From Nemertoderma westbladi (lineage: Eukaryota > Animalia > Xenacoelomorpha): DNA of 64,000 nt. The stretch covers positions 1 through 64,000 of the forward strand of contig JAUCBJ010008889.1 in assembly GCA_032718475.1 (NCBI GenBank), in the 5' to 3' direction. The stretch's first letter is position 1; the number at the start of each line of letters is the position of its first letter. Positions 1 to 50,495 of this stretch are shown in pieces. The translations under genes were made by a program, and so were the position numbers. The notes below the pieces were generated by a model. The model did not search any database, was not told where the DNA came from, and saw only the letters and a list, made by a program, of their open reading frames with translations.

Positions 1-792
1 ATCTTCACTGATTTTAATCACATATAAAAGGAACACAGACTGACTCATGTAGGGTCTATCAAATAACATTAGATTCACTTCAAACCACTTTAACATAAGT
101 CACAATCGTTATTGGTAACCTTTCTCTCTTACCTTCGGTATATCAAGAATATTGGGTGTCGGGGTTATTTCTCGTTATTCCAATATAATAATTCATCAAC
201 AAATATAATGAATAACCGATAACAAATAGCAGTACAGTATTGACAGATCAATCGGGCCAGTTGTTTTGAGTTAAGACAATCAATCAGTCATCAGGTGCGT
301 TTGGTCAGCCGCCAGGTCAGTTTTGTTTGATCATCAGTCAGTTAAAGGATATATGTCCTTATAATTAAACCTCCTAGTGTTGAGCTAAAAAGCAGAAAGC
401 ATAAAACACTACAAAGCCGTTCTTTCGTGGCTTTGAAAAACTCGTGACTACTGCTCTATACGAGGATACCAACTCCCTTATTCCACGAAGCTCCCGTTCA
501 ACACAGAGAAAGAGCAGTGAGATAGGAAATTTTCAGTTCAGTACTCTGTGATAGGTCAACATCAAGGATAACTCAAATTCTATTGGGAGATACAAAACAA
601 GGCTATGACGCAACCTCCCTAGGCTTGTTGGCCGATTAAACAGAGCCCAGATGCCTGCGTACAGCAAATCAGCCAATAAGCTGGTAACTTGCACTATTTT
701 TAGCTGTAGATCACTTTGAGAGTATTCTTAGCGACTGGGGGGGAACTGGCCAACAAGGCAAACGAATCAGTTATCCCACAAAAGCTTTTACA
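1..792 (-). mobile_element. LTR of a sister BEL/Pao family (runs off the window start)
   Basis: The minus strand starts TGTAAAAGCTTTT at 792, versus TGTAAAGGCTTTT at 10142. The reverse complement of 1-225 aligns closely to 10635-10855, and 340-390 aligns to 10538-10584 of the main LTR. Confidence 0.85.
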
Positions 793-2882: not shown

Positions 2883-5800
2883 TTAGCAAACAGTTGCACG
2901 TAATTTAAATGCATGAAAAATATATCGCGCAATATTCAAAACTTTAGTAGGATCGTCAGTTTGCATTAATTCAATAAATTTTAAAAAATTCGGGAAAACC
3001 ATATATCTCATACCCAAGTATCTGCACCGCAGGCTGTGATAAAAAGTGCAACCTAATAGAAAATGGTACTCGTCTTCTACTAAATTACAATCGCACATAT
3101 TGCAAATTCGCTGGTCCCTAGCTATACCGTACAAAAAACCGGCGCAACGCTAAATGATTACTCAATACGTAAATGTAAGTAGAGGGTTTGAATATTTCCT
3201 TTATATAAAATCTTCCTTTTGGGGACGATGCTACTTCTGATCTCCAAAATTGCACAAACTGATCAGTGATACGTTGCTTTACATTGAATAGAAAAGTGTT
3301 AACACTATCACCTACATCCTGATTTTGCCAAGCCCAACTAAATCCTAAATCATTTAGTATTCCTCTTAATTGCACAACCCAACTTTTTGGCGTTAAATGA
3401 CTTACTACTATCTAGTACGTTATTCAAATCATTGCACAACATTAAATAAGCCTGTTTCACCAACCTAGTATTTGGTAGATTAATAATTCTGGTCCAATAC
3501 TTAACTAATCTGAATCGACGTTCGAAAATAAGTTGTAATTGACCTGTCTCTCCATATACTGCAAAATTTGGAGTTGTTTTTTTTAACACCCAGAAAATTT
3601 TTCAGAAACCGTAAGTGTACCCTTTCTACATCATCAGCTGTATCAAAACCCCAAATTTCAGCACCGTACATTAAAATAGGTTTCACTAAAGTGTTGAATA
3701 AATTTATAGCACAATCGAAAGTAGAATGGGGAAATCGTACAAAGTATTTTAGTAAAGAAAAATATGCTCTACTACCTTGTTCTGCAATGTTACTTTGAGC
3801 AATATAAAATTTTCCAGATACCGTGAAGATAATACCTAAATATGTATACTGATTAATTTTTGGCATCACTTTGTTATTGTAGTAAAATTGCACCGCCGAT
3901 GGACGACCTTTGTGACCAAAAACAACAACATTAGATTTATCTAAGTTTACTTCCAAGCACCAATATTTACAATAAAATTCTAGAATTATTAGGGATTGCT
4001 GTAAAGCTGACTCAGTCTCTGCCAATATAACGATGTCGTCAGCAAATAGCAATAAGAATAATTTCATCGTACCAACATCTATACCTTCAATGCCACCTTG
4101 TCTTAATTCGTTTTCCAAATCATTAATAAAAATACTGAACAAAAAGGGTGATAAGCTCTCACCTTGTCTTACTCCTATAGATACTAAAAATGTTTCTGAC
4201 AATTTACCATCTACTTTTACACATGACTTTACACTACTATACATATTCTTAATAACATTTAGCATTTTGCCACCCGCACCTAAATTGATTAATTTCAACC
4301 ATAAAGCTGCACGACTAACTGAATCGAATGCCTTTTTCAGGTCAATAAAAGCACAATATAATTTTTTCTTACGAGTTAACAAAAAGTGATCAATAAGCGC
4401 ACGTAAAACAAACATTTGGTCAACTGTAGAAAACCCTGCTCGAAAACCACCCTGGGCTTCAACTACAATACCATAACAATTTGCCCACCATTGTAAACGA
4501 CTATTAATAACGGATGTGAATAATTGACCCAAAATTGACAACAGAGTTATTCCCCTATAGTTACCGGGATCCGACTTTTTCCCCTTTTTAAACAATGGAC
4601 ATATAATTCCAATTGTCCAATCTCGTGGAAAATTGCCCGAATCCAAAATAGCACTAAATAATAATGTTAACACCGGTACTAACTGATCCCGACCTTCAAT
4701 AATAAATTCACTAATAATATTGTCTACACCTGGAGATTTACCGCGCTTTAACTTATTAATAGCGTTATTTACTTCTACTTCATCAAATGGCATACTCAAA
4801 TCATTCTCAAAACAATTTCTACTTTCAATTATATTAACATTTCTACCTACGTAACTACTACAATTCCTTCCCAAATCCTGAAAATTTGAATTGTTTGAAC
4901 TAAGTCGCTCGAAATATTGTTTAAACTCATTAATAGATGGTTCATTTGCCCCTCTCGGAATAGCAACCCGGCAAATAGATTTCAATTTTTTCCAAAACTT
5001 TTTCGGGTCTGACACACGTGCCAGGTTCAGGCGCTGCGCTTCATTTCTCGAATATTCAAATCGGGTTTTACGCAGGGTTGCTTTATATTGAGCACGGCTC
5101 CTTTGAAGTAAGGAATACGCTTCAGGTGCTCCAGAACTTTTCCAATTAGACAACGCACTATTAAAAGCCAACTTTACATCCCTACATTCTAAATTAAACC
5201 AAATTGCACCATTACAAAAGGAATTAACATTACCTTGTTCGTTATCAGTTCGATGTAATGATAAAATTTCTGCCTGACGATCGAATATATCCGAAAGGTT
5301 CCCCACCGCAGCGTCTAAATTTTGCAGTGGAAAATTAACATCGGAGATAATTAGGTCGCCAATGTTCTGCAGCTCGTTTATCATATTTGCATCTTTCATA
5401 TTCGCATTAAATTGCTGTTTAACTCTATCGTTCCAAAAATAACGGTTTACTGGAGTACCCTCAACATGTATGTTACTAGCATCGGGTTCAGTAGCATTTG
5501 GCTCGAGAAATGTTTGCACTTCTAATTTAAATGAAATTGTACAGTGGTGACTATAAATATTTGGGATACCAATAGAAAAATCTGTACAATGCCCCATCAT
5601 TGGTACTGTGCCTAGTACATAATCAATTGTAGAAGAACCATTGCCAGAACGAAAAGTAAAATCACCACAGGCTTCGTCATTCCCTAGCCTTCCATTAAAA
5701 ATGCGTAGGCCAGTGTTTTTACATAGGGTTAATAATGTTGTACCATAGGCATTTACCTTTTTATCAAAATTATTTCTATCGGTATTTATACAATAATAAA

Positions 5801-6512
5801 TAAATTCATTTTCATCATCAACCTGGTCACCAATAAGTGATTCATCACAATGTGTAATCATCCCGCCATTGATTACAATATAATCGCATCCTTTAGCCGT
5901 TCTGGCATTTAAATCACCAATAACTAGTATATATGCACTGTCCCAATAAAATGCCAACCCTCTTTCAATATCATCAAATAAGTCAATTGCACTGTTGTTG
6001 TGGCTAGTGGAATTGTACGGCGCTATATATGCACAACAAAAAATAAGATCCCTTTCTAAACCTAAACATTGTTTATCTAGTTTTAACCATATAATATCTT
6101 CTACACTGAAATCATTTAGATTGGTTACGTGTGGTTCTAGATCAATTTTAAAATATACCAGCACTCCACCACTGAAGCGTTTTGCACTACGATGTTTCTT
6201 ATTCCGACACACCTTAAAATAATTATATCCCCCTATATCTAAGTTTAGTAACCCATATGGAGCTAACCAAGTTTCCGTACATATAAAAATATCGTGTGCT
6301 CGCACGAGTTTATGAAAATCAACATCTGCTAGTGCTGAACTAATACCTTCAACATTTAAATGTCCTACGTTAAGTGATCTAGTAATTGCAGGTTCATCAG
6401 AAACGGAAAGTGTAATATTAGTAGTTATATTATTGTTTACCAAGTTTTGTGATCGATCATCATCATTCGAGTTTAAACTTGAGAGCCCGAACTGATTAGT
6501 TTGGCACCTCAA
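2883..6512 (-). pseudogene. LINE ORF2 (APE-RT), with about three frameshifts in the C-terminal part (~3580, ~3360, ~3135)
   Basis: APE motifs: GHLNVEG, CTETW, GDLNART, TIDYV. RT motifs: NYRGITLL, FIDLKKAFD, GVRQGESLSP, LLFADD, YTYLG. The C-terminal RICNMC..EDEYHFLLGC lies in fragment 2883-3134. Confidence 0.9.
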
Positions 6513-7255
6513 CCGTTGGGTTGTGGATCACACGTTCCGGGGTGCCCTTCTCCCGTCTCATTGGCTGGCTGATCGAGAGAGCCTTCCTCCGGCTCATTGG
6601 CTGGCTGATCGAGTGAGCCTTCTTCTTCACCCAGCACGTCGAACACGTTGTGAAGATGCAAACTAGAGACCTGAGAACCCTCTTGAGGTCTACCAGCAGT
6701 ATCATCAGAACCAGACAGAGGTTGTGAGTATTTGCCGGGAATTATTATCCATTCGGGATTTGAAGGAGTAGAATTCAGTGATCGTTGAAGCTGAACTGTA
6801 ATTGGCGTCTGCGCCCCAGCATTTTCAACCGTCTCAGATTGTATAATACCCTGTTGTTGATATTCTGTGACATCCATTTCAGCCTCGCAGATTGACTCTT
6901 CAATGTGCACGAGCGGATCCATTTCTATAGTAGACCTGGTGACCGAAGAAGAGGACACAGTTGTGCTCGTTGGCGCGGGCGTAGTGGGCGCGGGCTGCCC
7001 CATAGTGGGTGCGGGCTGCCTCATGCGTTGAGTGGGCAGAACTGTAGTAGTAGGCGCGGATGGCCCTGAAGTGGGCGCGGGCGGCCCCGTGCGTTGCATG
7101 GGCGGCCTTGTAGTCGGCGCGGGCGGCCCCGTGCGTTGCATGGGCGTCCTTGCAGTAAACGCGGGCGGCCTTGCAGTGAACGCGGGCGGCCCCGTGCGCT
7201 GCATTATAAGCATAATGCATTTAGGGGTTGGGATTACTCTCTCAGACCTAAGCAA
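6509..7255 (-). CDS. Probable LINE ORF1 C-terminal remnant, Pro/Thr-rich with internal MQRTGPPAPT repeats
   Basis: It abuts and overlaps the ORF2 start on the same strand and has low-complexity repeats. No domain recognised. Confidence 0.5.
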   Translation of the reverse strand: MLRSERVIPTPKCIMLIMQRTGPPAFTARPPAFTARTPMQRTGPPAPTTRPPMQRTGPPAPTSGPSAPTTTVLPTQRMRQPAPTMGQPAPTTPAPTSTTVSSSSVTRSTIEMDPLVHIEESICEAEMDVTEYQQQGIIQSETVENAGAQTPITVQLQRSLNSTPSNPEWIIIPGKYSQPLSGSDDTAGRPQEGSQVSSLHLHNVFDVLGEEEGSLDQPANEPEEGSLDQPANETGEGHPGTCDPQPNG

Positions 7256-7840
7256 ACCAGTTCAATGTGGAGGGAACCAACTACACTACGTTTGTCTATG
7301 GGATGTCTTTTTATCGCCAGCTTGCTGACTTTTCTAGTTAATAATTAATAAATAGGGCTGCCTTTGATGTATTGTAATGTAATAGGTTTGGCCATGGACT
7401 TCTAGAATATTAATTAATACCAGGACTGGAAACTGTTTATTCGGAAATACCAGTTGAGGCCTACTTTCTGGTTTTTGCTAACAGTTATTTATTTTAGGAA
7501 TCATCATATCTAAACCGCTACCGTTTGAGTTTTTCTGAAAGGAATTTAATAATTTATGTTGGATTAGATGCCCAGATTTCTCAGTTTTAATTATGTATAT
7601 AAAATAACCCTTTTATCTGTTAATAATAATAATAATAAAAACAATTTATATAGCGCCAAATTTACATTTTAATAATCTAAGGCGTTGAAACAACAGTATC
7701 GTTCACATTACGTAGTCAAACAACTTAGAATAAAATAAACTATATCTAAAATTTTGTAAAACATGTTTAAAAATTGTGTTAAAATATTCGGTTCAGTTAA
7801 AACAATTCCGAATTCAAATTACTGGGAACAAAACAAGGAA

Positions 7841-8810
7841 TAGGAGTAGCGCCCACCCCTACCTTCGGGTAGGTAGCAGATAGGAGTAGCGCCCACCCCT
7901 ACCTTCGGGTAGCAGATAGGAGTAGCACCCACCCCTACCTTCGGGTAGCAGATAGGAGTGGCGCCCACCCCTACCTTCGGGTAGCAGATAGGAGTAGCAC
8001 CCACCCCTACCTTCGGGTAGCAGATAGGAGTGGCGCCCACCCCTACCTTCGGGTAGCAGATAGGAGTAGCACCCACCCCTACCTTCGGGTAGCAGATAGG
8101 AGTGGCGCCAACCCCTACCTACCTTCGGGTAGCAGATTGGAGTAGCACCCACCCCTACCTTCGGGTAGCAGATAGGAGTGGCGCCCACCCCTACCTTCGG
8201 GTAGCAGATAGGAGTAGCGCCCACCCCTACCTTCGGGTAGCAGATTTGAGTAGCACCCACCCCTACCTTCGGGTAGCAGATAGGAGTAGCGTCCTTTCCT
8301 ATCTTCGGGTAGCAGATAGGAGTAGCGCCAAGGCGCCAACCCCTACCTTCGGGTAGCAGATAGGAGTAACGCCCACCCCTATCTTCGGGTAGCAGATAGG
8401 AGTAGCGCCCACCCCTACCTTCGGGTAGCAGATCCCCTACCTTCGGGTAGCAGATAGGAGCAACGCCTACCCCTATCTTCGGGTAGCAGATAGGAGTAGC
8501 GCCCACCCCTACCTTCGGGTAGCAGATAGGAGTAGCGCCCACCCCTACCTTCGGGTAGCAGATAGGAGTAGCGCCCACCCCTATCTTCGGGTATCAGATA
8601 GGAGTAGCGCCCACCCCTACCTTCGGGTAGCAGATAGGAGCAGCGCCCACCCCTACCTTCGGGTAGCAGATAGGAGTAACGTCCACCCCTACCTTCGGGT
8701 AGCAGATAGGAGTAGCGCCCACCCCTATCTTCGGGTAGCAGATAGGAGTAGCGCCCACCCCTACCTTCCGGTAGCAGATAGGAGTAGCGCCCACCCCTAC
8801 CTACGGGTAG
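7841..8810 (+). repeat. 36-bp tandem array (~27 units), GGAGTAGCGCCCACCCCTACCTTCGGGTAGCAGATA
   Basis: Directly visible. It produces the spurious GATPICYPKVGV repeat ORFs. Confidence 0.97.
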
Positions 8811-8978
8811 TAGCTACCGAAAGAGGAGCCTTCGGGTCGCCTCCGGCCTCGGCCGACTGTTTGCTTTGCTTTGATAATAAATCATGCTCTGGTCTATAAG
8901 TAGGAGTAAGTTGTGATAAATAATTTATGAATGAATTATCCCAAAATCCAAAAATGTTAGAAATATATTTACTGTAGT

Positions 8979-9998: not shown

Positions 9999-10141
9999 TA
10001 AGTAACTTTAAAGGAATGATACATTATTGATATTAACTTTAAAGAAGTCAATCATTTAATAATAGATAAAACGAAACAGTAAAAAATAAATTGAACTGCA
10101 GGATTTTACTGGAGTACGAATTGCAGACATATTGGCATATC

Positions 10142-11284
10142 TGTAAAGGCTTTTGCGTAATTAGCCGGTTATTTTCCCCGTAAAGTACTCTGTAGTTGGT
10201 TTAACCGGCATAAAAGGCCGTGTCCTTACTGTATTGTTGTTTTAGAGGACATAAAAGCCATTTCTTCTGTATGTGTACTTTAGCGGACATGATTAGCAAT
10301 TCTATGACGCAATAAGCCGGATCCTCTTGAAACAGTGTAGATACCATGACGACGGCTAACAGCTGATATTGCCACGTAGAACATCTCTTTGTTCTTTGTT
10401 CTCTCTTTGTTCGGTCGACCAATCAGAGCGTTTTTTGCCTCTGTGTTGGAGATGGTATATAGAAACTAGGGAAGTGAGTCAGTATATGATTTCTTCCACA
10501 GCCTACAACACCGGCGTGGAACCTCTGTGTTTCAGTCTTTAGCTTAACATTAGTAGGCTTAATTATAGAGCGTATATCCGTTATCAAACCATATCAATTC
10601 TTATCACACTAACTTACTTAACATTACTGCTTTGCTGTCGGTTATTCATTATATTTGTTGATGAAATATTATATTCGGAATACTGATAAACAATCAGACA
10701 CCCCAATCTTCTTGATATACTAAAGGTTAGAGAGACCGGATACATATAACGATTGCGACTTACATTAAGTGGTTTGAAGTGAATCTAATGCTATTTTATA
10801 GGCCCTATACGTATTGTCTGTTGTTCTCCTTATATGTGACTAAAATTAGTGAAGGTCGGCAGATTAGAGTGCAGTATTGTGCAGCATTGTGTATGATTGT
10901 GATTGATAACGAAGCATCTCCTAAAGAATGCGCCATATACGTGAATCTATAGCCATCCCGTTGCGTCTGGTTTAAGCCATAACTCTGTTTATATATTTAG
11001 AGCGCCACGTCCTAAAGGAACTGTTAATATTTCCCGAAAGTGAATAATATTGTCAGAGATTTATATATCAAGATCAGTCGAATAATACAGTAGGTCTATC
11101 CCGCAATACGATTAGGCTTCCGAATCCAGTCTCCCGGGTATATCCAGCGGGTGAATGATCGCGCATAGACTGGTTTCGGCTAATGTAGTGTATCAAACAT
11201 TTGTCGTAGGCTAAAGACTATCTATTATCTAGAAGACATCCTAATTTGGCAGGTTAAACTGCTAAAGGTCTGAAAGCGCGAACA
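10142..11284 (+). repeat. 5' LTR (1143 bp)
   Basis: TGTAAAGG...GCGCGAACA. The end is defined by the same GCGCGAACA abutting the TSD at 28144. Confidence 0.92.
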
Positions 11285-11296
11285 ATAACGGATATA
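11285..11296 (+). promoter_or_regulatory. Non-tRNA primer-binding site ATAACGGATATA, complementary to LTR 10573-10584
   Basis: It lies directly after the LTR end, lacks the TGG start of a tRNA PBS, and is the exact reverse complement of TATATCCGTTAT at 10573-10584. Confidence 0.65.
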
Positions 11297-11633
11297 AAGT
11301 TCGGATTGCAGGGTAGGCAATAAATACAGTTTAATATTGTTCTGGTAAGAACAATAACGGATATTGCTTCTGTATTGCAGTAGGCAATAAAGCTGAAGTA
11401 CCGGCAACCGGTACCCAGTAGGCCTGACTACCTAACCACCCGGACCGGTACCTACAGCAGTACAGGTACAGCAGTATTATTCGATTTTGATTATTATATA
11501 CCAGTAGGCCTTAATTTAAAATCAGGGAGGGCCCGCCCTGGTTTTTTATTGAGATTTTACTTATTTCTGTCAAGTTTTATTTATTTGTAGGCCAATATTG
11601 ACCAGAAGGCGTGTAAGCCTGCTCAGATTGTAC

Positions 11634-12213
11634 AGATAATTTGTAGCCTTGACTGTTGTCTAACTGTTGTTAAGTCTGAACGGATTGCAGTGTGTGTAGA
11701 GCATCTGTCTGATAAAGTGCTAGTTAGGAATGTAGGGGCTTCAAATGCTGTGAGGTAAACCCCCTTTGAAAGAATAAGTCGTACTACTAGGTTAGAACGC
11801 ATACTAACTAATCATTTCGGAGTCTGCATATACTATAGTTTATTTAGGCTTGATAGTAGTCTGCCATCGTTTGGTCTGTACTTTGTTTGTGTAGTCTGTA
11901 CAGGTAGCGTATAATTCTTATTTAGATAATTTGTAGGCTGGATAGTTGTCTGGCTGTTGTTAGGTCTGAGGAAATTTCGGTGTGTGTAGAGTGTATGTCC
12001 GATAAAGTGCCAGTTGGGAACGTAGGGGCTTCCAGCGCTGTGAGGTAAACCCCCTCTGAAAGAATAAGTCGTACTACTAGGTTAGAACGCATACTAACTA
12101 ACCATTTCGGAGTCTGCATATACCGTAGTTTGTTTAGGCTTGATAGTAGTCTGTCAGTATTTGGTCTGCATTTTGTTTGAGTAGTCTGTACGCGTAGCGT
12201 AATATTTATTATT
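11634..12213 (+). repeat. Diverged ~290-bp tandem duplication in the BEL 5' leader
   Basis: AGATAATTTGTAG...GTAGCGT occurs at 11634 and 11924. Confidence 0.9.
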
Positions 12214-13555
12214 CAGAGTTTATGCTATTATTCGCAACATTCATATCCCCAAGTTTATTCCTACAGTAATTGTGCTTGTTATACATACCGTTATAGTTAA
12301 ACTAACCCCGGTACTACATCAGGGCTGCTTGGCGTAGGTAAAGACTGGAGATTTTATGCTTTGGTCACTCCGGCAGATACCGTGGTTCTTTTAGCTGTTC
12401 AAGTATTTTTAACTACTGATTATTTGTTGTACAAGTACTTGTACCTAATTTAGGGTTTAGTGTACAGTGCTTTCCGAAGGTAATTATCGTGTAGGCAGCA
12501 TATTTGTGTTGTAAAGTGGTTAATAGGCACGTTGGTTCTGGTAGACCGTGGTAATTAACTTCTGGGTAGGAACACTCCGTGATACATAATGTAGTACTTA
12601 TAGCGATATGGCTATAAGTCGTCAGACGGTGGTATTTTCCTATCTGGACAACGCAGTATATTTACTACTACTTATTATTTTCAAATACCGTAGTACCCTG
12701 TCCGTAGTAATAACCAGATATTCTAACCCTTTGTTAGGCTGGTTAGTAGACTTCTTGTAAAATTACCCTAAAAATTCGTATTTGTGTATTTGTAATTTTT
12801 TTTTTGTGTTTATTTAGAGATTGTAATCTCAACCCGAATTGTACGTAATTTGTAGTATTAAGTAACTTAGGTAAATTAGAATTATTTGTTTTAGTGTCCA
12901 ACAAGTAGCACTTCACTGAGAGCGCACCGCTTCTGTGTAGTGACTCCCCCCAGAAATAATAACATTTATTTCAAATATTGACAAAACCCATTTTAACGGG
13001 TATATATATTATAAATCAACTCTAAGATTTATAAATGGTAGGCCTGCCATACAACAATTAGGTCTAAATATCAGTTGGACTACTGCTTAAATAACGGTAA
13101 TAAAGTAAGTTAAAGTAACCAAGTAACCCCTACAAATTCAGAAATTCAATTATTTAAAATAATTGACATACCAGTATTTACCATAGGCTTATTATATTTA
13201 TTTCTATAAATTTAGGCTGAAATTATACCGGTATTCTGTAATTAATTCTAGTCTGTAATTATACTTATATATATACACTATAAGTGTAAGCTGTATACCG
13301 GTTTTCACGATAGGCCTATTATATATTTATATATATTTGTGCTGGAATTACATACCGGTATCCTGTGACAAACCTAGTCTGTAATAATACTTATATATAT
13401 ACTATAAGCATACCGGTATTCTAATATATTATATATATATCACGCTACACTGAGTAGCAGTATCGGTAATTAATTACTAGGCTAACAGTGATACTGAATT
13501 ACTAGACTTGCTTAAACTGTAATATAGCAGTAGGCATTCAACTGTACAAACCAAC

Positions 13556-16500
13556 ATGTCTGACACAAAGCAAAATCTGTCAGACAGTCTCCTAGATACA
13601 ACCATATGTGACCTAGACAGGAGTGTGGAACGTGTTAAACAGAAGTTCAACTCACCTCCTACTGTAAGAAAGATCATTCCCCCAGTAGTAATATCAGAAC
13701 CCAGGCTGGTCCAACACCGTAGATCTATCATAGGCACTAGAGCTCAGGTCAAGCGGGACCAAGAAGCAGCGGAACAACAACAACTCACGAGCCAAGAACT
13801 TATTTCTCAACGGTCCGACAGCTCCAGTAGTGAGGATACTGTAGAGCTGACACCCGAGCGCGGAGCAAAGATGACGGATGCGGTTTATTCGGATCCCCTT
13901 CTCATCCTTCCTGCAGCCGTACTCACTAGGTTATTGATTGTGGTGGAAGAACACCAGATCGATTGGGCGAGAAGTAAGCGATCGACTAAAGATAGTTATG
14001 CGGGATATACAAGGGAAGAACTTAAGTCTATTGTCGAGTCGCAATGGAACTTCCCCGGACCCGGACTCCCGTTTGATTTATCAGAAGCTGCCTGGGAAGA
14101 TATACACAGGATGGGAGTAACCAAGGAAACCGTCGATCCAGCTGTGTGGAAGAGGTCCGCAGCCGGATACGTACAGGGATTCGTAAGCTCTATGGAGCGA
14201 GTAGAAAAACAACTGTTTCAACAACCCCAAGGACCTCAAGAGCAGGGACAACTGCTTTATCAAGTTAGAGAAAGAATTCTACGAATCAGGCTAATCTTAT
14301 CAGCCTTTGAGGAGGCTTCTAAAAGAAGACAAGACACGTCGTTGCAAGTTGCCGTAAAGACTTGGTTTCAACGGGTGAGCCTCCAGGTGCAGGGAACGAC
14401 TCAGTGGAAAGCCCAACTGGAAGAGCGCTCAACCCATGGAGAATCAACAGACGCTACTTTTTCCCAAGTGGAAAGTGAAGCGACGGCAGAGAAGCCGCAT
14501 AAGAGGGATGCCATTGACATCTATCTGTCGGACTATCAACGTTTTGTAGGAGATGAAGAGTTGAGGAGAAGACTAGAGGGGCTTAGCCCTAATAGTGAAG
14601 GAGCCCAGCGTGTGTTGGACGCAATCGATGTGGATAGGTTAGCTGCGAACCAAGCTAAATTCAATGAAAGCATCCGCATTGCTAAGGTTCAAGAAGAACA
14701 AGTAAAGAAAAAACGTATAGAAGACAGAAAGATAGCAGCAGTGGCAGCAGCAGTGGCAGCGGCAGAAGCGGAAAGAAAGGCTGTAGAAGCGGAAAGAAAA
14801 GCAGCCGAAGTGGAAAGAAAAGCAGCAGTGGCAGCGGCAGAAGCGGAAAGAAAGGCTGTAGAAGCGGAAATAAAAGCAGCCAAAGTGGAAAGAAAAGCGG
14901 CAGCGGCAGAGGCAGAAGCGGAAAGAAAAGCAGCCGAAGTGGAAAGAAAAGCGGCAGAGGCAGTGGCAGAAGCAGAACGAAAGGCGTCTGAAGAGACTGC
15001 CCAACTAGAGTTGGAAAATCTTCAAGAGAAGCAAGACAACTTTAATAAACAGTTAACAGCTAGTAATATGCAGATGATGAATCGATCTACTCCCAAAAGG
15101 CAAGGTTATACATCATCTGAGGAAGGCAATACCACAGATCAGGAAGGCGGAGGAAATCGATCTCGCCTAAGCAGACGTAAAAGAATGTCCCACCGTCAGA
15201 AATTGCCTGATTTGCCCCCAGCTGTTCGAAGGCAACTAAATAACACAAATTTAGGTAGTACAGAACCCACAGACCAAATAATTAAAATAGAAAGACTCCC
15301 TACTATAGTAGATGAGCCTGAAATAATTAGGCCTGTTCTTGAAATCACCCCTTCGGTGATAGAGACACCTGTACTCCCAGAACCTACCTTTAAATTCCCT
15401 TTACACAGCACCAAATTATCTGTGCCTAGAGGAACAGCCCCTGAAACAGTGTCGGTCCTGGACTCCAAGCGAAATATAAAGGATATATCGCCCGTAGTCC
15501 CTCGTCTGCCCGCTACGACGTTAGCGGATCCTGCTTCGGCGGTTGATTGGGTAGACGAGAGACGGCGGGGGATGGATATTCTCCTCGGAAAGATGGAGGA
15601 GAATCGAGTGCGCTCCTCCCAACAGGTCCGAGAGTTAGAAGGGACTGTTCAACAGTTAAAGGGAACCGTAAAGGAAAGTAGGTTAGAGTTGCAAGAAGTG
15701 CAGCAAAGTATCGCGCTAGAACGCGATAAATTAGCAAATTTACAAAAGGGTATACCACCACCCCCGGTAACAATGTGTCAACCTGTTAGGTCTGAAGTAT
15801 CTCATGCGCAAGGTGTGGAGCCTACACGCATATATACTGCTAGCGAAGTAGAAACTCCTATAGTGAACCCTATTAAGGGTAATTATAGACCTGTTGATAA
15901 TGATATTCCCTATAGACCTGATCATAATCCGAGAAATTTATATACCGATAACTCGATATTGAATAACACGATGGCCCAAGAAAGTTTTACGTGTCAAATG
16001 GCTAGAACCGAAGCCCGGCAAGCGGTAAAGGTGGGAGAGATCGTCAAGTTCAATGGAGATGAGATGAAATGGTTACCTTTTAATGAATATTACAAAGATA
16101 ACATACAGAACTCTGTACTATCTAATGGAGAGAAACTTAGATTCCTCATCGAGTGCTTGGAAGGATCTCCCAAGTTAATGGCGTTAAAGTTTATTGGACA
16201 TCCAGACGGATTAAGACAAGTTTGGGATACACTGAACATCAGGTATGGTAATAGGAATAACATAGCTAAATATTTGTATGCAAAATTAGTAGCGCCCCGA
16301 AAGTTCATTAGCAGCGGGATAATAGAGTTTTCCGATGAGATTCAGGAGATCTGTAGACAATTAGATTGGTTAGGTAAGTCTCATGAATATCAGAGTTCTA
16401 TGGTTATTGGAGCCGTGGCCTCTACTTTACCGAAGGGTGGAGTAGGTACACGCTGGGATAAGAAAGTGTTATATATGATGGAACAACAACAACGAGACCC

Positions 16501-17092
16501 TACCATGGCTGATCTCATGTCATTCTTGGATGGCGAAGTGAAATTACAGCTCATAAAGCAGTCCAGAGAGAAGACACCGGAAAACAAGGTAAGTGAGAAA
16601 CCCGTCTCTAGGAGAAAGGTAACACCAGTGTGTTATACAGACGGCGGCGAAAGCCAGACTTCTCAAGGAGAGGATAGCAGGAAAGACACTGAAAGATCTT
16701 ATTATGTCAATAAAACGCCTAAAGAACCGGTAAGTAAATTCAAGTCTCGAACCAATGACAGGAGAGAACAGGTAAGAAAAACTCCTCCTACGTCTCCCAA
16801 GAGAATTCAGGTGAGAAAGCCCGAAGAAAGAACGAGTGTGCACAATGTTATTCAAAATAAGGTAAGTAACATCAAACCGAAATGTGCGCTATGTGACGGG
16901 ACTCACCGTTTGAATATGTGTGATGAATTCCTGAAGAAATCATTAGCGGAGAGACGGGAAGTCATGTGGGATAAGCGTTTGTGTTATAATTGCCTCAGAC
17001 AAGGACACCAACGGCGAACCTGTTACTCCGACACAAGGTGTGCAAAGTGCGGTGCGAAACATCATATCTTGTTGCACACTGAATTCGAGTGA
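13556..17092 (+). CDS. gag: BEL/Pao Gag, 1178 aa, with a long N-terminal extension and coiled-coil repeat
   Basis: DUF1759-like KFNGDEMKWLPF..LSNGEKLRFLIECLEG; BEL-type triple knuckle CALCDGTHRLNMC / CYNCLRQGHQRRTC / CAKCGAKHHILLH. Confidence 0.93.
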   Translation: MSDTKQNLSDSLLDTTICDLDRSVERVKQKFNSPPTVRKIIPPVVISEPRLVQHRRSIIGTRAQVKRDQEAAEQQQLTSQELISQRSDSSSSEDTVELTPERGAKMTDAVYSDPLLILPAAVLTRLLIVVEEHQIDWARSKRSTKDSYAGYTREELKSIVESQWNFPGPGLPFDLSEAAWEDIHRMGVTKETVDPAVWKRSAAGYVQGFVSSMERVEKQLFQQPQGPQEQGQLLYQVRERILRIRLILSAFEEASKRRQDTSLQVAVKTWFQRVSLQVQGTTQWKAQLEERSTHGESTDATFSQVESEATAEKPHKRDAIDIYLSDYQRFVGDEELRRRLEGLSPNSEGAQRVLDAIDVDRLAANQAKFNESIRIAKVQEEQVKKKRIEDRKIAAVAAAVAAAEAERKAVEAERKAAEVERKAAVAAAEAERKAVEAEIKAAKVERKAAAAEAEAERKAAEVERKAAEAVAEAERKASEETAQLELENLQEKQDNFNKQLTASNMQMMNRSTPKRQGYTSSEEGNTTDQEGGGNRSRLSRRKRMSHRQKLPDLPPAVRRQLNNTNLGSTEPTDQIIKIERLPTIVDEPEIIRPVLEITPSVIETPVLPEPTFKFPLHSTKLSVPRGTAPETVSVLDSKRNIKDISPVVPRLPATTLADPASAVDWVDERRRGMDILLGKMEENRVRSSQQVRELEGTVQQLKGTVKESRLELQEVQQSIALERDKLANLQKGIPPPPVTMCQPVRSEVSHAQGVEPTRIYTASEVETPIVNPIKGNYRPVDNDIPYRPDHNPRNLYTDNSILNNTMAQESFTCQMARTEARQAVKVGEIVKFNGDEMKWLPFNEYYKDNIQNSVLSNGEKLRFLIECLEGSPKLMALKFIGHPDGLRQVWDTLNIRYGNRNNIAKYLYAKLVAPRKFISSGIIEFSDEIQEICRQLDWLGKSHEYQSSMVIGAVASTLPKGGVGTRWDKKVLYMMEQQQRDPTMADLMSFLDGEVKLQLIKQSREKTPENKVSEKPVSRRKVTPVCYTDGGESQTSQGEDSRKDTERSYYVNKTPKEPVSKFKSRTNDRREQVRKTPPTSPKRIQVRKPEERTSVHNVIQNKVSNIKPKCALCDGTHRLNMCDEFLKKSLAERREVMWDKRLCYNCLRQGHQRRTCYSDTRCAKCGAKHHILLHTEFE
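14735..14990 (+). repeat. Coding minisatellite in gag (AAEAERKA / AAEVERKA)
   Basis: GCAGAAGCGGAAAGAAAGGC-like units repeated in frame. Confidence 0.9.
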
Positions 17093-17252
17093 AATAGTCC
17101 GAGTCAGGTAAGTGATTCCGAACTACATGTCCAATTCAGTGATGTGAACGACACTGATCAATCTGAGATGGAAGGATTCTATACGGACGAGTTCTCCGAT
17201 GAAAACGAATCCTGTTACATGATAAATACCGCAGTGTATCGAGCACTCACGT

Positions 17253-20200
17253 ATGAAAAAGATACAGACAGCACACCTCACCCTAACTACTTCTGATCGA
17301 CAACCATCTTGGAAAGCGCCATCTTCCAATGTAGGAATCCGAGCATTTCCTGTAGTACAGGTAAGGGTCCACGGACCTAAAAGGAGTTATGTAGTGAACG
17401 CCCTCCTTGACTCCGGTAGTACAGGAACATTCATCGACAAAGAACTAGCCGAAGACATCTTTGCTGGACAACCCAAGTTCCGAACTAAGCTAAACATGTC
17501 AGGAATTATGCAGGTTTGGAAATCTACAGTAATTGCGGATTATTATGTAGGTGCGTTGTCCACCCCCCAGGATGAACTAGGAGAACATAGTATAAGGTCA
17601 GTAAAAATGGTGGCGATAAAGAACTTCACTACCACCCAAGTGGAACCTTATAACTGGGATGAGGACGATTTCACCCAGCAGCTGGAAATACCTAGATTCA
17701 ACACCGATTACCCTGGAGTGCAAATACTCATCGGTCAAAACGCGCATGAAGCGCTCGAGACATTGGAGAAACGGCCCGCTCAACCGCGACCACTACAAGC
17801 TTATGCGGGAAGAACTAGAGTGGGTTGGTACTTTACTGGCCCTTCCCGTAGAACTCTCATGGAAAGATTACCGAAAGACCAGGTATGTCAAGTGAGAGAA
17901 TGGGAAGTCGAGGGCAGTGAGTTAGATGATCTAACTGAGGGAACACCATACTCCTCAGATAATGACGATGTCCACCAACTTTTCGATGAGGAGAACACCA
18001 TCGATCTCCTTAAGGAAAACGAGACTTGGCAAAACCAAGTGAACTTATGTCAGCTCCTTCTTCCATCAGAACGAGACGACTATAACGACGAACTTAATGA
18101 CGTCATTGAACGATATAATGCCAAGACTCGGGATGAACATGCCGTACGATTCTTTACTCAAGAGGCTGTAGAGCCCAATTCCTACGATAAGGCCCTATCG
18201 GTAGAGGAAGAAAGAGGCAAGCAGATCCAAGAGACAACTACACGTTTTCTTAAAGATCAAGGTAGATATGAGATCGGTTTACCTTTCCGAAAGCGAGAAC
18301 CAAAGTTCGTAAACAACAGACCCTTGGCGGAGAAAAGAATTGCTCAACTACATCGACGCCTTACGGCAAATTCTTCAGCTAAAGAAATGTATCAAACGCA
18401 GTTGAAGAAGTTTATTAGCAAGGGATATGCGGAGCTAGTACCGGAAGAAACACCTATAACTGAGAGAACGTATTATTTAACTCACCATTACGTTCCCAAA
18501 CCCGGTAAACCACATGAGGTACGGGTGGTGTTTGACGGCTCCGCCCTCTATATGGGCCAATCCCTTAATTCTGAATTGCTACCCGGACCCAACTTACTCC
18601 AATCATTGTTGGGAATACTTTTAAGATTAAGACAATATTCCATTGCTTTCGCCTCAGATATAGAAGGCATGTTCTTACAAGTCAAAGCGCTGGATAGGGA
18701 TCGAGACAGCCTACGATTTCTGTGGTGGCCTGAAGGAGACCTCAATCAGAAACCGGTGGAGTACTGGATGACCATCCAGGCTTTTGGGATAATCTCGAGC
18801 CCTTCAAACGCCTGTTCCGTGGTGCGCACCACTGCGGATGACAACCGAGACGCCTTCTCTAAAGAGGTGATTGACAACATTAAGCGGGATATATACATGG
18901 ACGACAATCTAAAGTCCCTTCCATCAGTCGAAGAAGCCATCGATGTCGCTAAAGGAACGGTAGAGTGCTTAAAAAGAGGTGGATTTCGATTAACTAAATT
19001 CACCAGCAACTCCCGTGAGTTTCTGGAGTCGATCCCGGTAGAAGATCGAGGAGCAAAAGACCTGGATCTAATAAAAGATGATCTCCCAGAAACTAAGACC
19101 CTTGGTTTGAAATGGGACACCGAAAGAGATATCCTGTTTTTCCAACTAAAACAGCGAGATAATCCAGTTCGGACTAAACGGATTTGTTTAAGTATCCTGA
19201 GCACTTATTTCGATCCATTGGGATTTATTAGCCCAGTTATATTGATTGCTCGGAGTCTAGTACAACAAATGTGGCTTGAAAACCACTCATGGGACGATCC
19301 ACTTAAGGGAGAATTATTAAAGAAGTGGATGAAATGGGAAGATTCTCTACCAGCCATCGAGAACTTTATAATTTCCCGTTCATATTTTGGTCATGTTCTC
19401 CCTACGTATTCCTATCAACTCCATGTGTTTGGAGACGCCAGCGATATGGGAATAGGTATAGTAGCCTACCTAAGGGAGGAAACTCCGGACGGAATCAAAG
19501 TCGCCTTGGTTACTTCTAAGACATTGATAAACAATAAGTTGAAAGTTCCTCGAGCGGAGTTAAAAGCGGCTCTATACGCTACAGCCATCGGCCGGAATGT
19601 AACAGAACAGATCGACTATCCACTGGAGAAAACTGTATATTGGACCGACGCTTTACTCGTGTTGGAGTATATAACCAATGAAGTCTGTCAGTTCAGCGTC
19701 TTCGTTACCAACAGAGTAGCCATTATACTCAGTCGCACAACGATGGATCAATGGAGACATTGCCCCGGAACGATTAATCCAGCAGACATCGCCTCCAGGG
19801 GAGCAACTCCACAAGAACTGGTAGACACTCCAGACTGGTTAGGTGGACCCGACTTCCTCTACAAAGAAGAAGAAGAATGGCCTCCTTATCTTACTACAGC
19901 AGAGATTAGACAGGCCAAGGGAGCGGAGAAAGTCAAACCTAAAACTCGGGCGAGTAAATCGAAGTTATTCAAACCCATGGTAGATCTGTCTGTACTACAT
20001 ATTTCCGGAGACGACGCTTTGGATCAGAAATCCACAGCCACAAATAAACTTGTTGTGGAAATCCGTGAGAAGGATTGGAAATCTGGAATACCAGACGTCT
20101 CGCAAGGACTCTCACCTCTTCTGCAGAGAGCGATACATCACTACAGTTCCTGGAATCGGCTCTGTAAGGCCGTTACATATTTAAAGAGATGTTTTCACCA

Positions 20201-21671
20201 TCACTACTCCGGGATGAAGGCCAAAGGTGATACCGTTCCAATAACATCAGTGCAGGTCCATGTTATTAAAGATCTTCCCAAATATAAGATACCCGACAGG
20301 TTTCTGAAGGAGAAGATCAGTTATCAGGAGCATGAAGAAACCAACAAGCAGATGCTGAGACTCCTGCAATGCTATGAGGATTCCGATAAGTATTTCCTGT
20401 TGTTGAGAAATCCACAGATGCGCTTAAGGGATCGTTTCTCTAGCACAATGATAGATGGGTTGATACGTGTTGGAGGAAGATTAACGAATGCTCCACTATC
20501 CTTTGACACTAAGTTTCCCATACTCATTAGAAATCTTGAAATACAAGTCAAGATGATTGTAGACGTTCACAGCAAACTTTATCATGCTGGTAGGGAACGA
20601 GTTCTTAGCGAAATTCGAACTCGCTATTATTTTTATAAACCTCGTAGAGCTCTGAACCAAGTTCTTAGGAACTGCATACCCTGTAGGAAAGCATTCAGTA
20701 GGCCTTTAACACAGCGAGAGGCAGAATTACCTAGGGAACGAGTAAGCTTCTATGAACCACCCTTTACTAATACCGGTGTGGATTTATTTGGCCCTATTGA
20801 AGTATATCGTGCTAGGACTATAGTCAAGAGATGGTGTGTCATCTTTGTTTGTATGACTTGTAGAGCTATCCATCTCGACATGGTGAACGATTTATCTACC
20901 AACAGCTTTCTATTAAGCTTACGACGACAGATCGCTCGCTTTGGCACTAGTAACACGATGAGATCTGATAAGGGAACAAACTTCATTGGTGCCAACAATG
21001 AAATCAAAGCTTACGTCAAAGATTGGAACCAAAGACAGGTGGACGATCAGCTACGAGTAACAGCGTCTAGCTGGACCTTCAACGCCGCCGACGCCCCTTG
21101 GTGGGGAGGAAGTTGGGAGAGATTAATAAGAAGTGTGAAGACAGCATTTCACTTTATAGTGCCTTGCCGCGCGTATCTCACCGACGAACTTTTGCGGACG
21201 TTAATGGAGGAAATCGCCGCCTATCTCAACGAGAGACTGCTTATGCCAGTCTCATCGAGTCCCGATTCCCTGGAAGCGCTAACACCCGCGCATTTCCTAC
21301 TAAAGAAACCTGTAGCCATGCTCCCACAATCGGAAATCACAGACGGAGACGAATACTGCCGGCAAACTTGGCAACTCATGCAGTTGTTATCCTGTCGTTT
21401 CGCTGATCATTTTGAAAAACATCATCTGCCCATGCTACAACTTCGAACTAAGTGGTTTGCGCAGCAAGAAAACGTCAGCGCTGGAGACATGGTTCTTATT
21501 GTGGATGTAGATCTTCCACGTAAGCGGTGGCAGACAGGTCGTATCATCGAGACTCACATCTCTGATGATGGTTTGGTGCGATCGGTAGAACTCGTCGTCA
21601 TGCGACGTAACTTCAAGAAACCGGGAATTGTCTTCGAGACGCAGCAGCTCAATCGCCCAGTTGGTACCTAA
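17253..21671 (+). CDS. pol: BEL/Pao Pol (protease, RT, RNase H, integrase)
   Basis: ALLDSGST (PR); RVVFDGS, SDIEGMFLQ, YMDD (RT); HVFGDAS, PRAEL, WTDA (RH); H-H..CIPC, GVDLFGP, RSDKGTNF, WERLIRSVK (IN). Confidence 0.97.
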   Translation: MKKIQTAHLTLTTSDRQPSWKAPSSNVGIRAFPVVQVRVHGPKRSYVVNALLDSGSTGTFIDKELAEDIFAGQPKFRTKLNMSGIMQVWKSTVIADYYVGALSTPQDELGEHSIRSVKMVAIKNFTTTQVEPYNWDEDDFTQQLEIPRFNTDYPGVQILIGQNAHEALETLEKRPAQPRPLQAYAGRTRVGWYFTGPSRRTLMERLPKDQVCQVREWEVEGSELDDLTEGTPYSSDNDDVHQLFDEENTIDLLKENETWQNQVNLCQLLLPSERDDYNDELNDVIERYNAKTRDEHAVRFFTQEAVEPNSYDKALSVEEERGKQIQETTTRFLKDQGRYEIGLPFRKREPKFVNNRPLAEKRIAQLHRRLTANSSAKEMYQTQLKKFISKGYAELVPEETPITERTYYLTHHYVPKPGKPHEVRVVFDGSALYMGQSLNSELLPGPNLLQSLLGILLRLRQYSIAFASDIEGMFLQVKALDRDRDSLRFLWWPEGDLNQKPVEYWMTIQAFGIISSPSNACSVVRTTADDNRDAFSKEVIDNIKRDIYMDDNLKSLPSVEEAIDVAKGTVECLKRGGFRLTKFTSNSREFLESIPVEDRGAKDLDLIKDDLPETKTLGLKWDTERDILFFQLKQRDNPVRTKRICLSILSTYFDPLGFISPVILIARSLVQQMWLENHSWDDPLKGELLKKWMKWEDSLPAIENFIISRSYFGHVLPTYSYQLHVFGDASDMGIGIVAYLREETPDGIKVALVTSKTLINNKLKVPRAELKAALYATAIGRNVTEQIDYPLEKTVYWTDALLVLEYITNEVCQFSVFVTNRVAIILSRTTMDQWRHCPGTINPADIASRGATPQELVDTPDWLGGPDFLYKEEEEWPPYLTTAEIRQAKGAEKVKPKTRASKSKLFKPMVDLSVLHISGDDALDQKSTATNKLVVEIREKDWKSGIPDVSQGLSPLLQRAIHHYSSWNRLCKAVTYLKRCFHHHYSGMKAKGDTVPITSVQVHVIKDLPKYKIPDRFLKEKISYQEHEETNKQMLRLLQCYEDSDKYFLLLRNPQMRLRDRFSSTMIDGLIRVGGRLTNAPLSFDTKFPILIRNLEIQVKMIVDVHSKLYHAGRERVLSEIRTRYYFYKPRRALNQVLRNCIPCRKAFSRPLTQREAELPRERVSFYEPPFTNTGVDLFGPIEVYRARTIVKRWCVIFVCMTCRAIHLDMVNDLSTNSFLLSLRRQIARFGTSNTMRSDKGTNFIGANNEIKAYVKDWNQRQVDDQLRVTASSWTFNAADAPWWGGSWERLIRSVKTAFHFIVPCRAYLTDELLRTLMEEIAAYLNERLLMPVSSSPDSLEALTPAHFLLKKPVAMLPQSEITDGDEYCRQTWQLMQLLSCRFADHFEKHHLPMLQLRTKWFAQQENVSAGDMVLIVDVDLPRKRWQTGRIIETHISDDGLVRSVELVVMRRNFKKPGIVFETQQLNRPVGT

Positions 21672-23380: not shown

Positions 23381-23690
23381 ATTCTAGTCGATTAAGATAT
23401 CGCGGCACCCACCGATATACTTGAAAGACAAAATTCTAGAATCAGTGGTTAACGTCCCCAGACAAGTTCTGGAATAAACTGGTGCCTATCCTAAATATTA
23501 ATTATTAATATTTACAAAATCTGTCAAATTTTAGATCCTTTAACATTCTAGTCGATTAAGATATCGTAGCACTTACCGATACTCTTAAAAAGACAAAATT
23601 CCTAGAATCAAGGATCCCAGTCCCCAGACACGTTCTGGAATAAAATTACGTCTATTTAACATTAAATAATAAAATTTACGGGAATAAATT
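23381..23690 (+). repeat. ~165-bp diverged tandem duplication in the BEL 3' region
   Basis: ATTCTAGTCGATTAAGATATCG...GTTCTGGAATAAA occurs at 23381 and 23546. Confidence 0.85.
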
Positions 23691-24454
23691 TAAATTCATA
23701 TATTTCAATGAATTTAATAAATTGTCATTTTATACAATTTATAACATTCCCAAAATTCCATTAATTAATAGATCATGGGAGTGGAGATTCACTCTATTAA
23801 GTGTATTTGTGTGCGAGAATCTCCAATATATAGTCAATACCCGATAAAATTCATAAAATCATATATAGAGAGGATATTGACAATTAAAGAATTACTATTA
23901 AATAGCATCCCAGATCTGTATGCATGAGAATTACCCTAATTCTACCGCTAGCTTTCCATAATGTCACCATGGCAACAACCACGCTAGAATTAGAAGTGAG
24001 TTAAAAGAACAATAAAGGGCTTGCGCATTGAATAGCATACGGAATAAATAGCACACCGCTAGTATCCAAGGATACATAATAACAACGTGACATTCTGGAA
24101 GGCACTTGACTAACGGACAAATGACCCGAATGTGTGATAGAATGTGTACCATTTGTGACAGTTACGTGGAATTTGTGCATTTGTAGGTGAATGTTACTAC
24201 TAAGGTGTGTTTACAGTAGCGAGTCGCAATTGTGAAAGTAGCCCTAACTCTCCAGTAAGAACCTGAAGTATATCTAAGCCTTTGGGACGGACGGTGGAGT
24301 GACTTGTGCTGGTTGTTGTAGTCGTTGTGCAGCTACGACGTTGGCGATAGGCACATCGGCGAAAGTACACCAGCGCTGAGGATCTCGCACTGTCCGGGGG
24401 CAGAGAGGGGTAGGCAGCGACGCCCGCTCGCCTAAATATAAACTCATTATAATA

Positions 24455-26050: not shown

Positions 26051-26068
26051 ACTTAAATCCCATTTTCT

Positions 26069-26076
26069 GGGAGCGG
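26069..26076 (+). promoter_or_regulatory. Polypurine tract (GGGAGCGG)
   Basis: Purine-rich run directly before the TG of the 3' LTR. Confidence 0.7.
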
Positions 26077-27219
26077 TGTAAAGGCTTTAGCGTAATTAGC
26101 CGGTTATTTTCCCCGTAAAGTACTCTGTAGTTGGTTTAACCGGCATAAAAGGCCGTGTCCTTACTGTATTGTTGTTTTAGAGGACATAAAAGCCATTTCT
26201 TCTGTATGTGTACTTTAGCGGACATGATTAGCAATTCTATGACGCAATAAGCCGGATCCTCTTGAAACAGTGTAGATACCATGACGACGGCTAACAGCTG
26301 ATATTGCCATGTAGAACATCTCTTTGTTCTTTGTTCTCTCTTTGTTCGGTCGACCAATCAGAGCGTTTTTTGCCTCTGTGTTGGAGATGGTATATAGAAA
26401 CTAGGGAAGTGAGTCAGTATATGATTTCTTCCACAGCCTACAACACCGGCGTGGAACCTCCGTGTTTCAGTCTTTAGCTTAACATTAGTAGGCTTAATTA
26501 TAGAGCGTATATCCGTTATCAAACCATATCAATTCTTATCACACTAACTTACTTAACATTACTGCTTTGCTGTCGGTTATTCATTATATTTGTTGATGAA
26601 ATATTATATTCGGAATACTGATAAACAATCAGACACCCCAATCTTCTTGATATACTAAAGGTTAGAGAGACCGGATACATATAACGATTGCGACTTACAT
26701 TAAGTGGTTTGAAGTGAATCTAATGCTATTTTATAGGCCCTATACGTATTGTCTGTTGTTCTCCTTATATGTGACTAAAATTAGTGAAGGTCGGCAGATT
26801 AGAGTGCAGTATTGTGCAGCATTGTGTATGATTGTGATTGATAACGAAGCATCTCCTAAAGAATGCGCCATATACGTGAATCTATAGCCATCCCGTTGCG
26901 TCTGGTTTAAGCCATAACTCTGTTTATATATTTAGAGCGCCACGTCCTAAAGGAACTGTTAATATTTCCCGAAAGTGAATAATATTGTCAGAGATTTATA
27001 TATCAAGATCAGTCGAATAATACAGTAGGTCTATCCCGCAATACGATTAGGCTTCCGAATCCAGTCTCCCGGGTATATCCAGCGGGTGAATGATCGCGCA
27101 TAGACTGGTTTCGGCTAATGTAGTGTATCAAACATTTGTCGTAGGCTAAAGACTATCTATTATCTAGAAGACATCCTAATTTGGCAGGTTAAACTGCTAA
27201 AGGTCTGAAAGCGCGAACA
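26077..27219 (+). repeat. 3' LTR
   Basis: Copy of 10142-11284; I saw only about three substitutions by eye. Confidence 0.93.
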
Positions 27220-28144
27220 ATAACGGATATAAAGTTCGGATTGCAGGGTAGGCAATAAATACAGTTTAATATTGTTCTGGTAAGAACAATAACGGATATT
27301 GCTTCTGTATTGCAGTAGGCAATAAAGCTGAAGTACCGGCAACCGGTACCCAGTAGGCCTGACTACCTAACCACCCGGACCGGTACCTACAGCAGTACAG
27401 GTACAGCAGTATTATTCGATTTTGATTATTATATACCAGTAGGCCTTAATTTAAAATCAGGGAGGGCCCGCCCTGGTTTTTTATTGAGATTTTACTTATT
27501 TCTGTCAAGTTTTATTTATTTGTAGGCCAATATTGACCAGAAGGCGTGTAAGCCTGCTCAGATTGTACAGATAATTTGTAGCCTTGACTGTTGTCTAACT
27601 GTTGTTAAGTCTGAACGGATTGCAGTGTGTGTAGAGCATCTGTCTGATAAAGTGCTAGTTAGGAATGTAGGGGCTTCAAATGCTGTGAGGTAAACCCCCT
27701 TTGAAAGAATAAGTCGTACTACTAGGTTAGAACGCATACTAACTAATCATTTCGGAGTCTGCATATACTATAGTTTATTTAGGCTTGATAGTAGTCTGCC
27801 ATCGTTTGGTCTGTACTTTGTTTGTGTAGTCTGTACAGGTAGCGTATAATTCTTATTTAGATAATTTGTAGGCTGGATAGTTGTCTGGCTGTTGTTAGGT
27901 CTGAGGAAATTTCGGTGTGTGTAGATATATTATATATCAAGATCAGTCGAATAATACAGTAGGTCTATCCCGCAATACGATTAGGCTTCCGAATCCAGTC
28001 TCCCGGGTATATCCAGCGGGTGAATGATCGCGCATAGACTGGTTTCGGCTAATGTAGTGTATCAAACATTTGTCGTACTATCTATTATCTAGAAGACATC
28101 CTAATTTGGCAGGTTAAACTGCTAAAGGTCTGAAAGCGCGAACA
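27220..28144 (+). repeat. Extra copy of the 5' leader (27220-27925) plus a second U5 end (27930-28144)
   Basis: 27220-27925 equals 11285-11990. 27930-28144 equals 11061-11284 minus 9 bp (AGGCTAAAG) and is followed by the TSD. Confidence 0.92.
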
Positions 28145-34266: not shown

Positions 34267-37222
<2,956 letters not shown>

Positions 37223-40620: not shown

Positions 40621-40899
40621 AATTATGTACTTTGGTACATTTGTACCATACGTTAGTACATGTGTACTACACATGTATTGTACATTTTTGTACCCATCGA
40701 ACATACGTAATTGTAACTAGCTACTCCTATTATGTATGTTGGTATGTTTGTTCCATATGTTAGTACATGTGTTGTGTACTACGTATGTATTGGACATTTG
40801 TACCCATCGGACGTACGTAATTATAACTAGCTACTCCTAGATATTATTATTATTTTTTTTTATTTTTTATTTTTATGGGAAGGGTGTATCACCCTCATT

Positions 40900-50476: not shown

Positions 50477-50495
50477 TACTTGCGACAAAATAATG

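Follow-up and report, generated by a model that had tools for sequence, protein, structure and literature searches.

The window analysed here, a 64,000-nt stretch of Nemertoderma westbladi DNA, carries a young BEL/Pao retrotransposon on its plus strand at 10142-28144 and, at its start, part of a diverged sister LTR on the minus strand (Table 1). A 5-bp ATATC target duplication flanks the whole element, and within this one duplication the layout is tandem: LTR, internal region, LTR, leader, deletion, and LTR end piece. The two full LTRs differ at 3/1143 sites, indicating that the element was copied recently and with its present primer site, which has no TGG. Pfam profiles matched DUF1759 in the gag-like frame and Peptidase_A17, Integrase_H2C2, and DUF5641 in pol; a match to a protease profile was weak and fell below the cut-off. 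Homologues of the RT-RNase H region among the 120 matches listed were 38-45% identical, all with PF05380, and those listed by name came from echinoderms, cnidarians, a mussel, a nemertean, and a tunicate.

Table 1. Positions of the BEL/Pao element, the sister LTR, and their parts within the 64,000-nt window.
Feature	Position	Strand	Remarks
Sister LTR, 5' part	1..792	-	leaves window at base 1; no preceding polypurine tract
Sister downstream LTR segment	3..234	-	82% identical to 10625-10854
Variable linker 3' of sister 12-mer	235..341	-	subfamily-specific; z 0.1
Sister candidate self-primer segment	341..353	-	12-mer 353-342; likely 3' end 341; exact in contigs suggestive of multiple copies
Sister LTR block, homologue of 10538-10584	342..389	-	38/47 identical
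Left target-site duplication ATATC	10137..10141	+	
5' LTR, 1143 bp, TGT...ACA	10142..11284	+	3 differences from second LTR
Possible 69-nt GT...AG intron	10474..10542	+	ends at block start; donor absent in sister; unsupported
Candidate self-primer 12-mer	10573..10584	+	exact complement of 11285-11296
LTR-internal 9-nt competitor	10903..10911	+	predicted to pair with 10579-10587
Primer-binding slot right after LTR end	11285..11296	+	no TGG
Second leader unit, 69 nt downstream	11349..11391	+	repeats last five bases of LTR and 11 nt of primer site
gag-like ORF	13523..17092	+	DUF1759; Cys/His knuckles at C-terminus
pol ORF	17226..21671	+	protease, RT (YMDD), Peptidase_A17 region, integrase, DUF5641; frame differs from gag
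Polypurine tract	26069..26076	+	adjoins second LTR, no spacer
Second LTR	26077..27219	+	
Second primer site and leader copy (tandem arrangement)	27220..27925	+	cut by deletion
Third LTR, 3' piece	27930..28144	+	followed by right target duplication 28145-28149

The assignment to BEL/Pao rests on the TG...CA LTRs with their target duplication, the type of Gag and Pol with the PR-RT-RH-IN order, and the polypurine tract. In these respects, and in having gag and pol, the element resembles the Belpaoviridae (Semotivirus) as described by ICTV (PMC8742986). It differs in two others: in the ICTV description the primer site is 18 nt long and takes the 3' end of tRNA-Arg or tRNA-Gly, and the genome measures 4.2-10 kb, whereas the window element has no TGG after its LTR and an LTR-to-LTR unit of ~17 kb. 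The departure at the primer site does not outweigh the protein evidence. In an RT tree (96 rows, FastTree, midpoint root, no row dropped; references of Suzu, Sinbad, Sparrow, and Surcouf not included), the window Pol formed a long branch to which none of the loci was closely related, and we therefore carry clade-level results over to this element by inference.

The gag and pol frames are separated by 133 nt (17092-17226). Between pol and the second LTR lie 4.4 kb (21672-26068), the two longest ORFs of which, 204 and 172 aa, had no Pfam match. The leader contains a 290-bp tandem duplication (86%) at 11634-12217, and gag an Ala/Glu/Arg/Lys repeat at 14725-14970.

Because of the target duplication, the end of the LTR is fixed independently of any pairing argument. 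The primer slot lies at spacer 0 from this end, and 10573-10584 is its only 12-nt complement within the LTR. Since a slot without a tRNA-type start exactly complements 12 nt of the element's own LTR, we consider it likely that this family self-primes minus-strand DNA synthesis in cis using part of its own RNA, in the manner of Tf1. In Tf1, according to excerpts of PMC7175516 and PMC4600332, pairing takes in the first 11 bases, and the RNase H cut falls between bases 11 and 12; against the ~11 nt of own-LTR complementarity typical of Tf1/sushi elements, the window element has 12/12 nt. With offsets 0-6 allowed, a 12-nt match arose in 5/5000 dinucleotide shuffles, and the actual match stands at spacer 0. 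This frequency argues against a match that is mere chance or a relic, with the block around the 12-mer kept only as a promoter and the changes in the sister being neutral drift, as does the recent copying of the element with its present slot and no TGG. We judge such an explanation very unlikely.

Pairing extended beyond an 11-mer was not significant (112/2000 and 442/2000 shuffles). A splice junction lengthening the element's own match was rejected, the best such match being 8 nt versus 12 contiguous. The possible intron at 10474-10542 gained no support: its acceptor-like site is common to the sister, its donor is not, and no joint across the sister equivalent was found in contigs. The 64,000-nt window holds no tRNA genes, and an Rfam search of 10100-13600 returned one match only, with an E of 0.93 and under the gathering score.

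The sequence-only reading had recognised in the sister LTR a homologue of 10538-10584 with a changed 12-mer. The homology of the minus-strand block 389-342 was borne out by BLAST (38/47, E 4e-6) and by global alignment (38/48, z 9.6), and the 12-mers do differ, at positions 8 and 12. That reading had also held that the LTR flanks do not align by eye, which proved wrong for much of the LTR. The segment downstream of the linker aligns with an E of 1e-57 and an identity as high as that of the block (82% vs 79-81%), and the upstream part, 390-792, aligns weakly to the main LTR, above chance (54%, z 4.6, 0/200 shuffles), as far as a TGT at 792 that marks the LTR start. Only the linker after the 12-mer failed to align (107 vs 40 nt). 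Since the flanks align in part, the block stands out as conserved against the upstream DNA and the linker but not against the LTR as a whole. Its conservation does not exceed that of the downstream LTR, a point in favour of the match being chance or a relic. From the LTR start to the 12-mer it is 439 nt in the sister and 431 nt in the main copy. The sister LTR has no polypurine tract before it and is therefore a 5' LTR or a solo LTR; if solo, as it may be, this copy would have no primer site of its own. No further sister copy was found in the 64,000-nt window.

The further claim that the block is a primer module gains support, of an indirect kind: the main 12-mer complements the slot after an LTR end fixed by target duplication, and relatives show the same arrangement in other letters. 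The sister 12-mer and the main primer site form 7 bp of pairing, at -7.3 vs -13.3 kcal/mol for the element's own 12-mer, and the primer site of the sister is predicted to carry changes matching its altered 12-mer. Because the paired segment starts T-T in none of 19 elements, and G-T or A-T in 18, the sister primer probably ends one base later than the homologous 12-mer, at 341, and its primer site would then be like plus strand 341-353 and not 342-353. The base after the sister 12-mer, at 341, is C; two contigs from a second organism match up to 340 and 339, respectively, and then diverge. The block begins with a pyrimidine run and TAG at 380-389 and 10538-10542, and likewise in the second-organism contigs; this may be a splice acceptor or an initiator-like element.

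Public contigs from three studies of the same organism (X1, X2, and X3), in which depth does not equal copy number, showed the LTR family to be very abundant. The exact sister sequence was present for 344-429 in one X2 contig at a depth of 2157 and for 286-360 in one X1 contig at a depth of 429, and other contig records listed alongside had depths down to 27-116. Exact contigs at such high depth suggest that the sister LTR represents a multi-copy subfamily with a changed 12-mer, not a single decayed copy. The summed depth of the sister linker was ~1/100 of that of its flanks, and joints crossed the linker. The two changes predicted for the sister's primer slot were not among the variants listed, for which the 1% cut (~2,700) exceeds the depth of the subfamily (~2,200 in X2); a further 8 rows stood outside the list, and the absence of the changes carries no weight. 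Within the primer slot's initial 11 bases, the only variant listed at this cut was G>A at 11290 (primer-site position 6, in a CpG), with ~10% of the depth in X2 and X3; being without explanation, this variant counts on the side of chance or a relic. Other LTR-end junctions in contigs begin purine-T and have no TGG, and contig joints skip 69 nt, which is the spacing of the second leader unit. In one X2 contig, which represents a rearranged copy, the LTR is joined at window position 19 to sequence that resembles the main leader around 12500 but runs the opposite way. LTR-end patterns gave 0 matches each in metagenome, viral, and prokaryote contigs, and Pol-based scans of viral contigs gave no match.

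By summed contig depth, a crude measure, LTR ends were several-fold more abundant than primer-slot junctions, so that many LTRs are probably solo. This excess is what would be wanted if the primer were supplied in trans, or by the LTR copy at the 3' end, with solo-LTR transcripts or spliced LTR RNA being co-packaged and cut, an arrangement that we think unlikely. The block could in that case be a TATA-containing promoter with a start downstream of the 12-mer, and a TATA-like word does stand ~10 nt ahead of the 12-mer in the two window copies, as well as before the junction of one relative (L027, below); this word could indeed put the start site downstream of the 12-mer. The word is, however, missing at that place in most relatives of the splice type described next.

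Distant BEL/Pao relatives came from metagenome contigs: of 78 loci, 27 had a usable LTR and 51 had none. The primer site was complementary to the element's own LTR in 24/27 loci, across a predicted splice junction in 22 and contiguously in 2; this tally of phylogenetically non-independent loci is made up of 18 computed cases, 4 by inspection, 2 contiguous, and 3 negative (L007, L040, and L074, with no own-LTR match). For a first set of 12 loci, the LTR end was taken from two LTR copies (from siblings for L069; the starts of L026 and L030 were arbitrary). Nine of the 12 had a 10-15 nt slot complement across a predicted junction, while L058, L068, and L074 failed. The junctions always combined a GTAAG donor with a pyrimidine-rich acceptor, though any GT[AG] donor was allowed. 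By inspection, the 5' copy of L068 has its donor side as in L069, and L058 is one change away from a match and would still pair as G-U.

A second set was searched blind, using 16 loci with a known LTR start (2 common to the first set). Matches of at least 11 nt were found in 9/16 loci, and all 9 lay within 5 nt after ACA, whereas three wrong-orientation controls gave 0, 1, and 0 of 16. L063 and L070 have donor side and primer slot in common with L069. The contiguous matches were 10 nt in L001 (26/1000 shuffles) and 11 nt in L024, each with a deduced LTR end. Pyrimidine-rich runs ending in TAG, 13 nt before the donor, occur in the LTRs of L043, L050, and L067 and are a possible micro-exon.

Among 18 families, own-family matches were 10-15 nt, which is uninformative alone because the families were selected as positives. 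Cross-family matches had a median of 3 nt, and the 20/306 that reached 10 nt all fell within five loci with one common primer site. In the splice-type families, the junction match was longer than the match to genomic sequence in 15/15. Splice-type loci were scattered across the whole RT tree, and TGG after the LTR was absent from the window element and from the 18 relatives examined. The recurrence of one design across the tree is further evidence against chance or a relic, and matching this strict within families needs no trans partner.

The 18 families have 14 distinct primer sites. This diversity bears on whether the pairing might instead be structural, serving circularisation, packaging, or a switch, with the primer being some host RNA not recognised as such, for instance a fragment of a tRNA. 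Half-tRNA priming in some copia lineages (excerpts of PMC6317226) and the tRNA priming that ICTV gives for the family (PMC8742986) would fit such a primer. Nevertheless, each of the 14 different sites matches its own LTR and would need its own host RNA, and the paired segment starts where spacer symmetry, described below, puts the primer end; we thus hold a host primer to be quite unlikely.

The 5' LTR copy of L027 lacks a 117-nt GT...AG segment that its 3' copy holds (1-214 vs 6935-7265). An intron-less 5' copy with an intron-bearing 3' copy is what priming in cis would lead one to expect, and it speaks against a primer from the 3' copy or in trans, with the proviso that the contig may be chimeric and may derive from DNA or RNA. 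On the other side, the persistence of the intron in splice-type relatives requires one unspliced template, which counts for supply in trans or from the 3' copy. In L027, 11 bases shortly before the junction are identical to those preceding the sister 12-mer.

The presence of a spacer at the primer site and at the polypurine tract agreed in 18/18 elements with both sites (Fisher p 0.0012; the loci are linked by kinship, blind LTR ends are the nearest ACA, and L030, in which no tract was found, was omitted). Where the polypurine tract abuts the LTR, in the window element, L001, and L069, pairing runs from the first base after the LTR; where the tract has a spacer of 1-6 nt, in 15 elements, the primer slot has one of 2-5 nt. 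Such symmetry is expected if the paired segment marks the start of minus-strand synthesis. The paired segment began with G-T in 15/19 cases, A-T in 3/19, A-G in 1/19, and T-T in 0/19.

In predicted RNA folds, the long-range helix appeared only for RNA 5' ends at ~10568-10575, where the second leader unit was the usual partner (P 0.84-0.99 for 5' ends 10571-10575). When the second unit was excluded, the first-unit helix had a P of 0.70 at 10573 and 0.88 at 10568, but three starts close by gave 0.05-0.24. With the RNA beginning at 10564 or earlier, the LTR-internal competitor won (P 0.8-0.96; pair 10579:10911), and that upstream 5' ends do not favour the fold is again a point for chance or a relic. 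The target duplication shows this insertion to have ended at the first leader unit. Overall, the predicted fold was most favourable with the 12-mer near the transcript 5' end, as in Tf1, a prediction that does not itself locate the start.

If priming occurs in cis with the element's own RNA, as we favour, the 5' LTR copy of the 12-mer would fold onto the primer site across ~700 nt. By analogy with Tf1, the RNase H of RT would cut the RNA just 3' of the 12-mer, and the new 3'-OH would prime at the first base after the LTR. Priming at this base would yield a blunt right end, the mirror of the blunt polypurine end. For most relatives, the pairing segment would be formed only once the predicted LTR intron is removed; the window family would then be the intron-less form of the same design, its contiguous form having presumably arisen via intron loss. 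A broader proposal, to which we give even chances, is that self-priming is the standard mode across a wide range of marine-invertebrate BEL/Pao and is gated by host splicing. Intron removal from the 5' copy only would build the primer, the unspliced 3' copy would pass the intron on, occasional 3' splicing would delete the intron and create contiguous families of the Tf1 kind, including the present one, and the first paired base would set the DNA end, keeping it matched to the polypurine tract.

The closest parallels are Tf1/Tf2 of Schizosaccharomyces pombe, Tj1 of S. japonicus, and Tf1/sushi elements in general, which in the excerpted accounts resemble the window element in having no tRNA primer site and 11-12 nt of their own LTR complementary to the primer slot. 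Tf1/sushi elements are Ty3/gypsy chromoviruses, whereas the window element has a BEL/Pao Pol. It further differs from Tf1 in the ~700 nt between the paired strands, and most of its relatives pair across a predicted splice junction, a feature not given for Tf1 in those excerpts. Tf1 reportedly also has a supporting U5 inverted-repeat stem. The window element thus likely works like Tf1 without belonging to the Tf1 group.

Self-priming has also been predicted, from a primer site complementary to the own LTR, for Tcn1 (gypsy) and TAR (copia) of plants (excerpts of PMC6317226). As for the window element, the prediction there is drawn from own-LTR complementarity, and the trait recurs in separate superfamilies; unlike it, these are elements of other superfamilies in plant hosts, for which the same excerpts give no junction-spanning primer or spacer symmetry. 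BEL/Pao replication has been called poorly understood and is assumed to be tRNA-primed (PMC8742986). A search of papers outside subscription journals, with PMC6934838, PMC3601003, PMC6238403, and PMC4558846 among them, turned up no account of BEL/Pao elements that prime themselves or form a primer at a junction; Repbase, GyDB, subscription journals, and supplements may contain one. By word counts, PMC554778 and PMC3118150 do not mention PBS, tRNA, or priming.

BEL/Pao is one of the main animal LTR superfamilies. A self-made primer in this group, if confirmed, would mean that tRNA-free priming arose independently once more, and a spliced primer in the relatives would tie host splicing to the start of reverse transcription. 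A self-made primer might also explain why BEL/Pao primer sites are hard to annotate.

Elsewhere in the window, a LINE-type element at 3501-7261 (minus strand) has an open frame of 1008 aa for endonuclease and RT, with a 250-aa ORF upstream. Other mobile-element fragments, with an aspartyl protease, an integrase core (rva_4), and RT, lie at 41088-42452, 49342-50106, and 50441-51361. Repeats include a 36-bp tandem array (7764-8913), a long purine-only simple repeat (34700-37200), and a 33-bp array (40327-40653). Two arrays of a 20-bp near-palindromic unit, at 45627-45947 and 53311-53571, are inverted relative to each other, 7.4 kb apart, and have flanks in common; they are possibly a MITE-like family.
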